Under the pieces are notes generated by a model. That model worked only from the letters and a program-made list of their open reading frames with translations. It was not told the origin of the DNA and did not search any database. A stretch of 64,000 nucleotides of DNA, taken from positions 5,895 through 69,894 of the forward strand of contig JAAYEC010000034.1 in NCBI GenBank assembly GCA_012728915.1, written 5' to 3'. This DNA is from Deltaproteobacteria bacterium. Its GTDB lineage: Bacteria > Desulfobacterota > Syntrophia > Syntrophales > UBA2192. Each line of letters begins with the position of its first letter. Positions within the stretch are counted from its first letter, which is position 1. Made by a program: the position numbers and the translations under genes. Below, one piece after another: positions 29,736-39,498 of this stretch.

Positions 29736-30536
29736 TCAGTTGCCTTGCGCCTTCCGTTTTTCAGCCACGATCAGGAGCACCGAGGCAAGGCGGGCAGGCC
29801 AGACTCGCGCATCGACGCGAGCAAGACCGGCATAGAGACGGTTGAGCAGACAAAAGACTTTCACGAGCGCTTCCGGGGGACTCGTCCGGCTGCGGGGGGA
29901 CACGCCGCGAAAGGCCGCGGAGGAGAGCCTCGCGAGAAGCGCCGCGGTTGCCCCCATGGTGAGCTTTTCAAGCGGGCCCAGGACCTTTGCGACGGCAAGC
30001 GGCCGGAAACCCGATTCCCGGAGCATGGTTGCCATGTCCGCAAGGTCGTAGCGGCGGTGATGACCGACGAACCGGTCATCGACGGCATAGAAGTCCTGCC
30101 GGTGCGGAAAGGTCACGGCAAGGCGCCCCCCCGGCTCCAGGGAGGACGTCATCTCGCGCACCGCCGCGCGGTCGTCCTCGATGTGCTCCAGGACCTCGGA
30201 GCATACGGCCCGTCGAAACACCCCGGGCTTAAAGGGCAGCCGGGTCGCGTCGGCCACCACGTAGTGCCCCGTACCCTGGGCGTCCCGGAGAACGCGCAGT
30301 GCAGAAAAGGAAAGCTCGGTAAAAACGGTGCGGTCCGTGGCGCGGCAGATCGGCGAGATGCCGCTGCCGATCTCCAGGGTCATGCCGTCGGACTGCCCCG
30401 AGAGGCTCTCCCGGATTGCGCGCCTGCGGACCCGATAGTTGTACAGGCTGTTTTTCAGCGCCAGATAGGCCGGGTCCTCGAAAAAGTCATCGAACCGGTT
30501 TGCGGCATCCCTTGTCATCGGCTGCCCCTCCGTCAT
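29736..30536 (-). CDS. class I SAM-dependent methyltransferase
   Basis: Motif I LEIGSGISP and a Methyltransf_11-like core. ATG 30536 forms an ATGA overlap with the GT2 stop. Confidence 0.8.
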   Translation of the reverse strand: MTEGQPMTRDAANRFDDFFEDPAYLALKNSLYNYRVRRRAIRESLSGQSDGMTLEIGSGISPICRATDRTVFTELSFSALRVLRDAQGTGHYVVADATRLPFKPGVFRRAVCSEVLEHIEDDRAAVREMTSSLEPGGRLAVTFPHRQDFYAVDDRFVGHHRRYDLADMATMLRESGFRPLAVAKVLGPLEKLTMGATAALLARLSSAAFRGVSPRSRTSPPEALVKVFCLLNRLYAGLARVDARVWPARLASVLLIVAEKRKAQGN

Positions 30537-31297
30537 CCTTCGCCGGCCCGGTTGGCCGGGAACAGGGGGGATCGAGCCACACCGAGACGGGACATCCGGA
30601 AAATCAGCGCCGTCCAGAGGCATCCGAACCCGTAGCGGACGCTCCGGCTGAAGTTGATGGAGGAGGAATCCGCGTAGTATCGGGTGGGGCAGCTGATCTC
30701 GGCGATCGGGTGGTCGTACCAGAGAACCTGGAGAAGCATCTGGTTGTCGAAGATAAAGTCGTCCGAGTTCCCCTCCAGCGGAAGCTCTTCCAGGACTCTG
30801 CGCGAGAAGGCCCGGTAGCCCGTGTGATATTCGGAAAGCTTACCCCCCGTCAGGACGTTCTCGAAAAGGGTCAGGAAGCGGTTGGCCACATACCGCCACA
30901 GCGGCATGCCGCCGCGCAGAGCGTGACCTCCGAGGATGCGGGAGCCGAGAACGCATTCGTACAGGCCGTTGCCGATGAGCGACGCCATGGCCGGGATCAG
31001 TTTCGGGGTGTACTGGTAATCGGGGTGGACCATGATGACAATGTCGGCCCCCTCCTCCAACGCCATCCGGTAGCAGGTTTTCTGGTTTGCCCCGTAACCC
31101 CGGTTCTCGGGGTGCCGGTGGACGGTGACGTCGGGAAGGGTCCGCGCAAGCGCAACGGTCTCGTCATGGCTCGCATCGTCGACGACGATGACCCTGTCGA
31201 CGACACCCTGGGCCATGACCTCGTCGAAGGTCTTCCGGAGGGTCTGCGCCGCGTTGTACGCCGGCATGACGACGATGACTTTTTTCTCTGCAAACAT
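30533..31297 (-). CDS. family 2 glycosyltransferase, Dpm1/ArnC/GtrB-like (polyprenyl-phosphate monosaccharide synthase candidate)
   Basis: VVMPAYNAAQTL ... VIVVDDASHDET ... ENRGYGANQ ... MVHPDYQY. About 250 aa and lacks a large membrane domain. Confidence 0.82.
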   Translation of the reverse strand: MFAEKKVIVVMPAYNAAQTLRKTFDEVMAQGVVDRVIVVDDASHDETVALARTLPDVTVHRHPENRGYGANQKTCYRMALEEGADIVIMVHPDYQYTPKLIPAMASLIGNGLYECVLGSRILGGHALRGGMPLWRYVANRFLTLFENVLTGGKLSEYHTGYRAFSRRVLEELPLEGNSDDFIFDNQMLLQVLWYDHPIAEISCPTRYYADSSSINFSRSVRYGFGCLWTALIFRMSRLGVARSPLFPANRAGEG

Positions 31298-31337
31298 CTG
31301 TCTGCCTCAATGGTTTCGGCGTCTGGCTCCGATCCGC

Positions 31338-33077
31338 TCATCGAATCCGGTAGACGGCATGACCGTTCGACTCATGGAGTTTGTCCAGGCACTGGGCAAG
31401 CGTCCCCACCACCCGGCCGACCTCTTCCCGGGGGATGTTGTCCTCGAGCGCCTTGAGGAGCAGGTCCTTCTGGACCAGCAGGTGGGTCCCCCCCAGGGAC
31501 TTCAGGTATGCCGAGAGCGTTTCTGTATCGGAGGACGCTCTCCTGATGCCCCGCACGATTCCGGGTTCCCGCCAGGCATGGTGGAGATACTCCCTGTCGA
31601 GATAATACCCGCGGCCGCCCATATAGAGGAGGTAAACGACTGCATCCTGCGGCAGGTGCCGGTTGATGTACGCCACAGCCTGGTAGCTTCCGACCTGCCG
31701 GGACAAAAACCCGTCTCTCGATTCTTCGCCGAGTATATACGGCATGGGACGCACCTCTGCAACCAGATTCCCTAGATAGAGAAGATTCATGGCAAGCAGC
31801 AGGGCAACGCCGGTGAAAACGGCACCGGTCGCCACGCGACGCGCTAGGTTCAATCGAAGACCCATCCACTCCAGGGCGTTCCGAATCCCCAGCACGGCGA
31901 GGATCGCCGCGAAGGGGAGGATCGGGAGGATGTAGCGGATGCGCAGATCCGCGGTCAGTGTGGATACGGTGAAAACGAACGCGATCAGGTAAAGAAAAAA
32001 GAGGCGGTGGCCCTTCCGGTGTCCCGTGAAGGCAAAGGGGATCGCGACGGCGTACAGCGGGTTCAAAATCCCGTCGAAGTGCTGCGACGAATGGTCCCAG
32101 CCCTCGTAAAAAATGCGCAGAGGCAACAGCAGAATCTGCCATGCGTTTTCCCCGTAGAGCAACATCCGGTTGCGGATGAAGCTGAAGCCGCCGCTCGGTG
32201 CATCGCCCGCAACCAGGAACGCGGCCGGCTCGCGGCCGCCGTGGATGAACGTAAACAGGCCGTCCATCAGGGGATAGACGGGATTCCCTTTCAGGATCAG
32301 GTTCTTCACGAGCCAGGGAGAAACAACGGCCAGGGTAACCAGAAAGAACAGCGTGCCCCACCGCAGGGCCTGCAGCTGCCTGCCCGTGTCGCGCGCGTAG
32401 AGAAAGACGATCGCCCCGTTGAGGAAGGCCCACGAGATAAAGGCATTGTACTTGGTGCCTGCCGCAAGCCCCATGAAAACCGCCGAAGCCGAGATCCACC
32501 TGGCCTCCTTGTAGCCGCCGTCACGCCAGCGGAGATAAGCCAGGACGGAGGCCGTCGTGAAAAAGATCATCCCGAGGTCGACATAGGCGGTAATGGACAG
32601 CCGCACAATCATCGGCGTGCTTGCGAACACCAGGAGCCCGAGCAGCGCCCAGGTTCGCCCGGCCTGCTCCCTCAGGTACCGATACACGAGATACCCCGTT
32701 GCCCATCCAAAGAGCATGTGGATGAAGGCCGGCAGCACGTCGTTGCCGAAGGCGAGCGGCACGAGGTACAGAAGATCGACGTTCATGGGGAAGTAGCTGA
32801 ACTCGGCCCAGGGGGTCTCGAACCATCCGCCGTGACGGATCCAGAGCTTCGGGATGGCCAGGTGGTGGATGAGAGCATCGCGGGATACCGGCGGCATCAG
32901 GCACAGAAGTGCCTCTGCGGCAAACACGAGGGCAAGCGTTCCCGCAATCAGCATGCGGACAGGCCGAGGTAGTTCAGCTGTGTCATTAGAACGGCTCCGC
33001 GTATCGTCGCAGAATGCTGATGCCCTGCGGGAATTCTTCCCGGGCGCAGCCGGTGTCCTATCCTTCAGGGCTCGCAC
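31338..33077 (-). CDS. ArnT/PMT_2-like GT-C membrane glycosyltransferase with a C-terminal soluble domain
   Basis: About 11 predicted TM helices in the first 400 aa or so, with an early acidic loop (PPVSRDALIHH). The roughly 150-aa tail is non-TM. Alternative start ATG 32954. Confidence 0.68.
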   Translation of the reverse strand: MRALKDRTPAAPGKNSRRASAFCDDTRSRSNDTAELPRPVRMLIAGTLALVFAAEALLCLMPPVSRDALIHHLAIPKLWIRHGGWFETPWAEFSYFPMNVDLLYLVPLAFGNDVLPAFIHMLFGWATGYLVYRYLREQAGRTWALLGLLVFASTPMIVRLSITAYVDLGMIFFTTASVLAYLRWRDGGYKEARWISASAVFMGLAAGTKYNAFISWAFLNGAIVFLYARDTGRQLQALRWGTLFFLVTLAVVSPWLVKNLILKGNPVYPLMDGLFTFIHGGREPAAFLVAGDAPSGGFSFIRNRMLLYGENAWQILLLPLRIFYEGWDHSSQHFDGILNPLYAVAIPFAFTGHRKGHRLFFLYLIAFVFTVSTLTADLRIRYILPILPFAAILAVLGIRNALEWMGLRLNLARRVATGAVFTGVALLLAMNLLYLGNLVAEVRPMPYILGEESRDGFLSRQVGSYQAVAYINRHLPQDAVVYLLYMGGRGYYLDREYLHHAWREPGIVRGIRRASSDTETLSAYLKSLGGTHLLVQKDLLLKALEDNIPREEVGRVVGTLAQCLDKLHESNGHAVYRIR

Positions 33078-38939: not shown

Positions 38940-38967
38940 CCTGCGAGACTGAGAATTCTATACTCGG

Positions 38968-39351
38968 TTACGGACTGATGACGCCAGTGGGACTGATCGT
39001 GTAGGTCTTGTCGCCGTTGGTATGAGATGCCGTAATCGTGAGGCCCGACATACTGCCATTTGTAACGTTGACCGTTACACCCGTGCTTGCTACATAACCA
39101 CCGCTCGTGAGTTCAGGAGAGTTGGCTCCGGTTGTAATCGTTGCAGTAGGCCTGTCGCTGAAGTAGGCCTGTGCTGCCGTATAGGCGTTTTTTACATCCG
39201 CGCGCGCTGCGGTGTTGTAGCCCCTGACTCGGTAGGCCTGGAACTGCGGGATTGCGATTGCCGCCAGGATGGCGATGATGGCCACGACGATCATGAGCTC
39301 GATCAGTGTGAAACCCTTCTTGCCTCTCTTCTTTGCGAAATAACTGATCAT
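38968..39351 (-). CDS. pilA: type IV major pilin (prepilin with class III signal peptide)
   Basis: AGGAGG Shine-Dalgarno 5 nt before ATG 39351. Leader MISYFAKKRGKKG, then FTLIELMIVVAIIAILAAIAIPQF (G-1, F+1, E+5). Located downstream of pilS-pilR. Confidence 0.9.
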   Translation of the reverse strand: MISYFAKKRGKKGFTLIELMIVVAIIAILAAIAIPQFQAYRVRGYNTAARADVKNAYTAAQAYFSDRPTATITTGANSPELTSGGYVASTGVTVNVTNGSMSGLTITASHTNGDKTYTISPTGVISP

Positions 39352-39482
39352 GATAACCTCCTGTTCGAAATTCTTTTGCATATGCCCTAGTTTTCTTTAT
39401 CGCCTTCTTTTCGGATTCCTTTAGACCTGGCTTCTTTTTCGTTTACCTCCTCTTCCCGGTTTTCAGTGTCTGACCACCATTG

Positions 39483-39498
39483 AGCAATTCGCATGCCA
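39483..39498 (-). promoter_or_regulatory. sigma-54 (-24/-12) promoter of pilA
   Basis: Minus strand reads TGGCATGCGAATTGCT, matching TGGCAC-N5-TTGCW with correct GG/GC spacing. It lies about 130 nt upstream of the pilA ATG and downstream of the sigma-54 activator gene. Confidence 0.75.

Follow-up and report, generated by a model that had tools for sequence, protein, structure and literature searches.

Downstream of a gene for a type IVa major pilin, pilA, the 64,000-nt stretch of DNA analysed here (the window), which derives from an uncultured, anaerobic Syntrophales-like bacterium, carries three tandem genes (T1, T2 and T3) for membrane proteins with C-terminal tetratricopeptide repeats (TPRs), followed by genes coding for a fourth membrane glycosyltransferase of the GT-C type, a family 2 glycosyltransferase (GT2) and a methyltransferase. 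The arrangement raises the question of which reaction this block catalyzes, and whether the adjacent pilin is the acceptor. The genes form a real functional unit that has been conserved. Its most likely role is that TfpW-like GT-C/TPR enzymes O-glycosylate the neighbouring pilin in the periplasm, with a polyprenyl-phosphate monosaccharide made by the GT2 as donor; to the pilin as acceptor we give about an even chance.

Glycosyltransferases encoded by the block

The three tandem T genes indeed code for proteins with an N-terminal polytopic domain and C-terminal TPRs, as a preliminary description of the locus had claimed. The paralogs share 49–54% identity in their membrane domains and 31–33% in their TPR domains. 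Pfam recognized only TPRs in T1 and T2, and in T3 additionally a weak PMT_2 match (8e-5) below the cutoff; among 15 aligned members of the T family, nine matched PMT_2 (best 1.4e-9), T1 and T2 themselves remaining unmatched. Sequence searches of the PDB with T1 and the fourth GT-C protein retrieved TPR proteins or nothing, and the membrane-domain profile retrieved nothing. The AlphaFold2 model of full-length T1 (pLDDT 85.7) returned TPR proteins only when submitted to Foldseek; since the comparison was swamped by these proteins, it was rerun with the membrane domain alone (pLDDT 83, pTM 0.87, 11 membrane helices). GT-C enzymes then accounted for 21 of the 22 best PDB matches (probability 0.75–1.0, query TM-score 0.34–0.52), with STT3, Pmt4, PglB, Pmt1/Pmt2, DPY19, ArnT and AftA as top neighbours. 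The membrane domain of T1 is, as modelled, a GT-C fold; its structural likeness to STT3 and PglB is generic to GT-C enzymes.

Lysine and arginine residues of T1 cluster at the N-terminus and in the loops 208–232, 329–333 and 388–396; since they occupy the N-terminus and alternate loops, the N-terminus is predicted by the positive-inside rule to be cytoplasmic, and the loop with the DD motif as well as the TPR domain to be periplasmic. Across 39 homologues including T1–T3, the residues D44-D45, R150-K-D152, K192...T197, Y287-x6-P294-x7-P302 and D363-R364-x-x-Y367 are invariant, and D44 and D45 are also invariant in the alignment of 15 sequences, which likewise contains T1, T2 and T3. Judged by model and sequence, the T proteins look like active GT-C enzymes that have the architecture of the eukaryotic TMTC proteins and some of their motifs.

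The remaining three genes fit the earlier assignments. The fourth protein, proposed to be an ArnT/PMT-like GT-C enzyme, matches PMT_2 above the cutoff (1.5e-8; 35.5 bits versus a cutoff of 26.1), and its homologues, annotated either as ArnT family or as phospholipid carrier-dependent glycosyltransferases, carry PMT (PF02366), PMT_2 (PF13231) and DUF8201; R25-D26 in its first loop is invariant. The GT2, described as a Dpm1/ArnC-type enzyme of about 250 aa, has the Pyrococcus dolichyl-phosphate-mannose (Dol-P-Man) synthase 5mlz (2.9e-9) and ArnC as best PDB relatives, while the nearest NCBIfam models (AglJ, PpgS, Dol-P-hexose transferase) all score below their cutoffs. It is unusually conserved, with 72–78% identity to proteins of Planctomycetota, Phycisphaerae and Sedimentisphaerales and with >8000 homologues, all of which are named just "glycosyltransferase family 2". 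The phyla of the closely matching proteins (Planctomycetota, Phycisphaerae) are those rich in T paralogs. The start codon of the methyltransferase gene overlaps the GT2 stop codon, confirming the ATGA coupling noted before; by its sequence, the protein is a generic class I enzyme. Orthologues occur in the same cassette in L087, L091, L006 and L089 (L numbers denote homologous loci), and a frameshifted methyltransferase gene is seen at positions 13551–14430 of L001.

The four components, T, GT-C, GT2 and methyltransferase, recur as a cassette across phyla, and at E <= 1e-3 a profile search with the T membrane domain yielded 102,523 cluster representatives, of which 27,778 had E <= 1e-30. Because the cassette recurs autonomously and the T family is huge, the proposed enzymology, i.e., formation of a lipid-linked monosaccharide donor and its use by GT-C enzymes in the periplasm, is well supported, and we consider it highly probable.

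Table 1. Features of the pilA region; positions refer to the window
Feature	Position	Strand	Remarks
pilS	41043-42779	-	sensor kinase; Pfam 6TM_PilS, PAS, HisKA, HATPase_c
pilR	39639-41033	-	sigma-54-dependent response regulator; Pfam Response_reg, Sigma54_activat, HTH_8
Repeats GTGATnAGAATCAT	39534-39547, 39609-39622	-	two exact copies upstream of the pilA promoter
pilA promoter TGGCATgcgaaTTGCT	39483-39498	-	sigma-54 -24/-12 type; kept upstream of pilA in L001, L002, L085, L087
pilA	38968-39351	-	type IVa major pilin; N_methyl 1.9e-10
Intrinsic terminator	38905-38939	-	after pilA; hairpin 38911-38939 + U-tract; folding -28.8 kcal/mol, z = -3.7
Element CGGCGCgttttTTGCT	38839-38854	-	weaker, sigma-54-like; 78 nt ahead of T1 start codon
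T1	36914-38776	-	620 aa; GT-C membrane domain aa 1-415 (11 transmembrane helices), periplasmic TPRs 415-620 (predicted)
Element TGGCAGaagaaTTGCA	36750-36765	-	sigma-54 -24/-12 type; 108 nt ahead of T2 start codon
T2	34987-36657	-	556 aa; T1 paralog, GT-C + shorter TPR domain
T3	33065-34951	-	628 aa; T1 paralog, GT-C + TPR; start at 34927 (620 aa) according to gene callers
Fourth GT-C	31338-32954 (or to 33077)	-	ArnT/PMT-like; 538 aa, C-terminal soluble domain, without TPR
GT2	30533-31297	-	polyprenyl-phosphate glycosyltransferase type (Dpm1/ArnC/PpgS-like); 254 aa; Glycos_transf_2 E = 1.8e-26
Methyltransferase	29736-30536	-	class I, S-adenosylmethionine-dependent; Methyltransf_11; start overlaps GT2 stop as ATGA
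Low-GC3 island	33065-39381	-	exactly pilA + T1 + T2 + T3

Linkage of the T genes to pilA

All genes of the array are located on the minus strand, in the order pilS, pilR, sigma-54 promoter, pilA, terminator, T1, T2, T3, GT-C, GT2 and methyltransferase (Table 1); gene positions, strand and the sigma-54 promoter of pilA are as previously described. The start codon of T1 lies 191 nt past the pilA stop codon, with the hairpin in between. In a Syntrophales-like clade (L001, L084–L087; 52–60% T identity), comEC is followed by pilS-pilR-pilA (one or two copies)-T (one to three copies)-GT-C-GT2-(methyltransferase)-xerD. The succession of pilA, terminator and T gene is conserved in L001, L002/L003, L084–L087, L091 and L099, and in at least nine related loci a T gene is situated just downstream of pilA with a hairpin between them. 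Among genomes, the copy number varies from one to four for T and from one to two for pilA, and gene decay is apparent in L087 (6928–8229), where T fragments lie between pilA and intact T genes. The contig L003 (JAKQPV010000027.1) has been assigned to the Spirochaetota, yet its pilin and T gene are those of the Deltaproteobacteria metagenome-assembled contig L002, with identical pilin sequence and scores; the assignment is probably a binning error.

The whole neighbourhood, from aspS-hisS-comEC to xerD-kdsA, is syntenic in close relatives, which tells against a specific tie between pilin and T genes: part of the conservation of the pilA–T pair is therefore due to inheritance. Three results, however, go beyond inherited synteny. 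The first is the recurrence of the pair in other surroundings. In L049, a low-GC Syntrophaceae contig in which pilSR, comEC and xerD are not nearby, a GT-C-like gene is found on one side of pilA, and a terminator followed by four T genes on the other; further pilA–T arrangements occur in L005, L006 and L095–L097.

The second result comes from the pilin side. With the pilin as seed, 80 loci were retrieved from metagenomes, of which only those with at least 1.5 kb of downstream sequence were assessed. A T/GT-C gene was located downstream of five of six pilins of the family and both intermediate pilins (7/8 jointly), compared to none of 31 distant pilins; Fisher's test of 7/8 versus 0/31 gives ~5e-7, albeit for loci that are not phylogenetically independent, which counts against taking the contrast at full weight. 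The third result is compositional. The GC content at third codon positions (GC3) is 0.656–0.666 in pilA, T1, T2 and T3, and 0.79–0.88 in every flanking gene, i.e., in pilS, pilR, GT-C, GT2, methyltransferase and xerD genes. L086 and L087 have a comparable island, which L084 lacks. By analogy to the pilin-accessory cassettes of Pseudomonas, this pattern suggests that the pilin and T genes have been exchanged, or are evolving, as a unit, with cassette replacement at a conserved locus. The initial view that the linkage is merely positional is hence not borne out by the recurrence in L049, the pilin-side survey and the shared GC3 island.

The hairpin downstream of pilA was missed by a consensus terminator scan, but was confirmed by folding, and an equivalent hairpin is found at the same place in L001, L002, L084, L085, L086 and L049. 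A terminator after pilA is common in Pseudomonas pilin-accessory cassettes, where it attenuates expression of the accessory genes (PMC11841053). Given that it is a hallmark of such cassettes, and that the T genes are preceded by putative sigma-54-type promoters of their own, the terminator loses its force as an argument against linkage, for which it had been taken in the preliminary description. The interval from the pilA terminator to the first T gene also holds, in L001, L084 and L085, an xGGCxx-N5-TTGCT element like that ahead of T1; in L002/L003, L086 and L087 it holds TGGCAG-N5-TTGCA, as at T2 (at positions 1038 of L002, 8877 of L086 and 8868 of L087). Judging from these motifs, the T glycosyltransferase genes may be sigma-54-dependent in their own right, and sigma-54 dependence is likely to be common to pilA and the T genes, the putative PilR site being confined to pilA. 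This candidate site, which may bind PilR, consists of the two copies of GTGATnAGAATCAT, 75 bp apart, one of them within a palindrome; they are the sole zero-mismatch matches in the window. A PilR site shared by pilA and the T genes was also considered, but was rejected, since no GTGATnAGAATCAT-like site was found in front of T1 or T2.

Further along the same strand are xerD, a gene for a conserved 670-aa TPR-only protein (between xerD and kdsA), kdsA, lptC, lptB and rpoN. The gene for sigma-54, rpoN, is located 15 kb downstream, past kdsA, lptC and lptB (region 21594–28509); lptB codes for an ABC-transporter ATPase and was named from its position. Rfam and tRNA scans of the window gave no matches, so a tRNA-linked island of the Pseudomonas type is not present.

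Pilin, other envelope proteins or polysaccharide as acceptor

The PilA precursor comprises 127 aa, with a 13-aa leader (MISYFAKKRGKKG) cleaved before FTLIE, and a mature protein of 114 aa; pilA was called as a 127-aa gene in four metagenome contigs. The mature protein lacks cysteine, and its C-terminal half is rich in serine and threonine, which make up 23 of the last 63 residues; length, absence of cysteine and Ser/Thr count all reproduce the earlier figures. Two motifs are conserved among the pilins, S-D-x-P-T-A-T and, at the C-terminus, G-x-I-(S/T)-P. N-x-S/T sequons occur in the pilin beta-domain (NVT and NGS here; NVT, NGT, NMT and NAT in relatives L001, L002, L084 and L085), but are not universal among the relatives. 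From their sequence, the sequons and both motifs are possible modification sites. N-glycosylation of the PglB/STT3 type was nevertheless set aside, in view of the patchy occurrence of the sequons and the generic nature of the likeness to STT3. Aromatic residues of PilA are at positions 1, 24, 27, 32, 50 and 51, the overall aromatic content being just 7.9%; an aromatic pattern together with a 13-aa leader with G|FTLIE has been used to call "e-pilins", as for Syntrophus aciditrophicus (bioRxiv 10.1101/479683).

If the pilin is the acceptor, the following sequence of events may be envisaged. The GT2, by its family resemblance, would use a nucleotide sugar to charge undecaprenyl phosphate with one monosaccharide on the cytoplasmic side of the membrane, where the methyltransferase might conceivably methylate this sugar. 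After translocation of the lipid-linked sugar by some flippase, T1–T3, possibly together with the fourth GT-C protein, would transfer the sugar in the periplasm to serine or threonine residues of membrane-anchored PilA prior to pilus assembly, with the divergent TPR domains selecting acceptor sites or successive acceptor states. Expression would be tied to piliation by read-through of the pilA terminator and by the putative sigma-54-type promoters that precede the T genes. As is assumed for TfpO and TfpW, the modification could mask the pili from pilus-specific phages or stabilise the pilin.

Several observations weigh against the pilin as acceptor. A T-seeded scan with one genome per species gave 79 loci (44–60% identity), which belong to Syntrophaceae and other Desulfobacterota, to Verrucomicrobiota, Planctomycetota, Acidobacteriota and Nitrospirota, in which tandem T paralogs are frequent (up to six per locus); a prepilin motif near the T genes was observed in just eight of these 79 species loci, six of the eight being deltaproteobacterial. 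The T family in general is not a pilin neighbour. Besides, the Ser/Thr content of 28–36% in pilin beta-domains is not diagnostic of glycosylation, the GTGATnAGAATCAT repeats are confined to pilA, and a small GtrA-like flippase is missing among the called genes of the cluster. The four-part cassette also exists in the Anaerolineae (Chloroflexota), on contig L089 (Ga0307378_10000008, 1–12800), where three to four copies of T are accompanied by an orthologous GT-C (1e-175), a methyltransferase (5e-71) and a 247-aa GT2 (6e-130), and with no pilin within 7 kb; this contig additionally codes for a GtrB-sized GT2 and an LPG_synthase_TM protein. Finally, in two loci the T genes are part of clusters of the lipopolysaccharide/exopolysaccharide (LPS/EPS) type: L090 contains two T genes, GT-C and GT2 beside genes for GT4, GT9 (heptosyltransferase) and pyruvyl transferase, and in L088 a T gene is grouped with genes for YfhO and GT4.

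The pilin-free cassette of the Anaerolineae, the 102,523 cluster representatives with up to six tandem paralogs but no adjacent pilin in Planctomycetes, Verrucomicrobia and Acidobacteria, and the synteny of the entire region in close relatives would fit the possibility that the same enzymology acts on other proteins of the envelope, be it in a general O-glycosylation system or in a protein-specific one, the position next to pilA reflecting inherited synteny or co-regulation. We regard this, the main alternative, as a serious but rather doubtful possibility, since pilA and T are also paired in the non-syntenic loci L049, L095–L097 and L006, the compositional island comprises exactly pilA and T1–T3, and TfpW provides a direct precedent for the modification of a pilin. 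Taking both sides together, the pilin is a plausible acceptor in view of its genomic context, for which the arguments seem to us nearly balanced.

It is unlikely that the GT-C/TPR proteins make or decorate a polysaccharide or LPS in the manner of Emb or ArnT, for instance a matrix polymer co-expressed with pili. Such a role would suit the GT4, GT9, pyruvyl transferase and YfhO neighbours in L090 and L088, the proximity of kdsA-lptCAB in the window, and Geobacter-type loci such as L106, in which a T-like gene follows a gene for a xapD-like ABC transporter; in Geobacter, the xap cluster is located downstream of pilA (PMC5585712). However, the characterised TPR-fused GT-C enzymes, TMTC and TfpW, are protein-directed, protein-modifying GT-C enzymes are the closest structural neighbours of T1, and genes for polymer export or chain-length control are absent from the cluster in the window. 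JGI annotations name some T homologues "protein O-mannosyl-transferase"; for others they give "Tfp pilus assembly protein PilF" or "Flp pilus assembly protein TadD", but a function of T1–T3 as non-enzymatic TPR pilus assembly factors of the PilF/PilW/TadD type is very improbable and was dismissed, because the PilF and TadD names, like the sub-threshold NCBIfam matches, derive from the TPR region alone, the scores fall well short of the curated cutoffs (PilW, 47–77 bits versus 154; Tgl, 33–62 versus 225), and T1–T3 are not lipoproteins but have an 11-helix GT-C domain with invariant catalytic residues.

Should O-glycosylation of the pilin prove correct, pilin glycosylation for phage evasion or stability would extend from Pseudomonas to strictly anaerobic syntrophs. 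The possibility of conductive "e-pili" has been discussed for pilins of the family of PilA, among them the pilin of Syntrophus aciditrophicus (bioRxiv 10.1101/479683); should these pilins carry sugars, models of e-pili surface, conductivity and heterologous expression would need to be revised. The more than 100,000 GT-C/TPR clusters, from Desulfobacterota, Planctomycetota, Verrucomicrobiota, Acidobacteriota and Chloroflexota, arguably contain TfpW as the only characterised member, and the locus gives this huge family a concrete candidate acceptor, a small cysteine-less pilin, together with a complete minimal gene set.

Comparison with known glycosylation systems

The pathway logic of a polyprenyl-phosphate sugar synthase acting together with an extracytoplasmic GT-C enzyme is that of GtrA/GtrB/GtrC, ArnC-ArnT, and the mycobacterial pairs PpgS-Rv3779 and Ppm1-Pmt. 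As in these systems, a synthase-like GT2 is paired here with GT-C enzymes; however, the 254-aa GT2 lacks the C-terminal transmembrane hairpin of GtrB and ArnC, the GT-C transferases carry TPR domains, and the likely acceptor is a protein, in contrast to O-antigen, lipid A or arabinogalactan in the three-component systems. TfpO/PilO and PglL are pilin-modifying accessory enzymes as well, and tfpO is likewise encoded just after pilA. They are, however, unrelated proteins of the Wzy_C type which move preassembled, undecaprenyl-diphosphate-linked glycans en bloc, and a Wzy_C domain was not detected by Pfam in any of the seven cluster proteins.

The eukaryotic TMTC1–4 proteins (GT105) share with the T proteins the combination of an 11-helix GT-C domain and lumenal or periplasmic TPRs. 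The seven published TMTC motifs, M1–M7 (PMC7801869, Table 4, Eisenhaber et al.), were compared with the conserved residues of the T family. Three of them are present in full, namely M1 (DD; D44-D45), M3 (RxD; R150-K151-D152) and M7 ((E/D)RxxY; D363-R364-x-x-Y367). M2 (SHKSYRP) and M6 (PxxP) are matched only in part, by W76-H77-P78-L79-T80 and the single P349, respectively. In M4, KE(T/Q)xxT, lysine and threonine are kept, but the metal-binding glutamate is replaced by proline (K192-P193-M194-x-V196-T197), and at the place of the DW motif M5 the T family has Y301-P302 and no conserved DW. An HP.H.E(S/A)V stretch is retained ("LLFAVHPIHT" in TMTC3 and "ALFAIHPLHV" in T1). Pfam DUF1736, which corresponds to the loop between transmembrane helices 7 and 8, had no match in 15 members of the T family or in T1–T3 at E values up to 10. 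Thus, of the domains that the preliminary description had proposed to search for, PMT_2 (in the fourth GT-C protein), TPR and Glycos_transf_2 were found, but no T protein or relative matched DUF1736. Likewise, the proposed likeness to TMTC proteins holds for architecture, topology and the motifs M1, M3 and M7, but not for DUF1736, DW and the glutamate of M4; on the basis of their sequences, the T proteins cannot be shown to belong to the TMTC family as defined by DUF1736.

A Dpm1-type GT2 would make the donor here, in parallel to the TMTC pathway, and its gene next to the T genes is the one hint at a transfer of mannose from polyprenyl-phosphate-mannose to serine or threonine of a protein. The acceptors, unlike those of TMTC, cannot be cadherin domains. 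Prokaryotic TMTC homologues are merely noted as existing in the TMTC literature, and a literature search found no paper on a bacterial TMTC-like pilin system. It may tentatively be proposed, as one of the less probable interpretations, that the T proteins and the conserved 254-aa GT2 represent a bacterial counterpart, and possibly the evolutionary source, of the TMTC pathway, with the Syntrophales pilin as the first identifiable substrate. If so, a TPR-guided, protein-specific O-glycosylation with a dedicated polyprenyl-phosphate monosaccharide synthase would be very widespread, pili of the syntroph "e-pilus" type would carry sugars, which might be methylated, each paralog would have its own site or step, and the locus would bear on the origin of the eukaryotic TMTC O-mannosyltransferases.

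Geobacter-type loci (L106, 5821–11809; also L107 and L108) comprise pilR, a gene for a short, 61-aa-type pilin, a PilA-C-like open reading frame, an ABC transporter gene and a GT-C/TPR gene. The 580-aa GT-C/TPR protein of L106 has more TMTC-like motifs (YYRPL, RTD, KET, AERYLY), and T1 aligns collinearly with it (26% identity, E = 9e-10). Its gene is followed by one for a decaprenyl-phosphate phosphoribosyltransferase (NF008978, an equivalog model; 214.5 bits versus a cutoff of 207). This context, which overlaps the xap region of G. sulfurreducens, resembles that of TfpW and its D-arabinofuranose donor, so that the alignment links T1 to TfpW indirectly.

The closest known system is that of TfpW from group IV strains of P. 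aeruginosa/paraeruginosa (Pa5196, PA7). TfpW is a 646-aa GT-C protein with cytoplasmic N-terminus, 11 transmembrane helices, a DDX motif, which is essential, in periplasmic loop 1, as well as a sizeable C-terminal TPR domain in the periplasm, for which ArnT and, for the TPR part, OGT were the best templates; tfpW is located directly downstream of pilA, and several serine and threonine residues of the pilin receive D-arabinofuranose (Burrows laboratory, bioRxiv 10.1101/2020.04.19.049825). The claim that a TPR-guided route had not been described for bacteria cannot be maintained, since TfpW, cited there as a plain GT-C enzyme, itself has a periplasmic TPR domain and is encoded directly after pilA; a TPR-bearing GT-C pilin glycosyltransferase was already known, and the novelty of the locus was overstated, given that T1 and TfpW agree in architecture and in the place of their genes. 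By the published description, T1 and TfpW are alike in length (about 620–650 aa), in the predicted N-in topology with 11 transmembrane helices, the DD(X) motif in loop 1 and the periplasmic TPRs, and both are encoded downstream of pilA behind a terminator. In periplasmic loop 4, the motif Y-x6-P-F-x7-P of TfpW is resembled by Y287-x6-P294-x7-P302 of the T family, where the second spacer is one residue shorter and valine takes the place of phenylalanine.

TfpW, which modifies several serine and threonine residues of the pilin, uses a polyprenyl-phosphate monosaccharide donor, decaprenyl-phosphate-D-arabinofuranose, which is supplied by DPPR synthase, DprE1/DprE2 and a GtrA-like protein. None of these domains is encoded among the cluster genes described here, where a Dpm1-like GT2 and a methyltransferase take this place. 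The single enzyme TfpW contrasts with three paralogs with fast-diverging TPR domains and a TPR-less fourth GT-C protein, a TfpX is absent, and the T genes, unlike tfpW, have putative sigma-54-type promoters of their own. Compared to TfpW, what is new is thus the donor pathway, the triplication of the transferase, the additional TPR-less GT-C protein, the putative sigma-54 promoters and the host lineage, an anaerobic Syntrophales-like bacterium instead of Pseudomonas.

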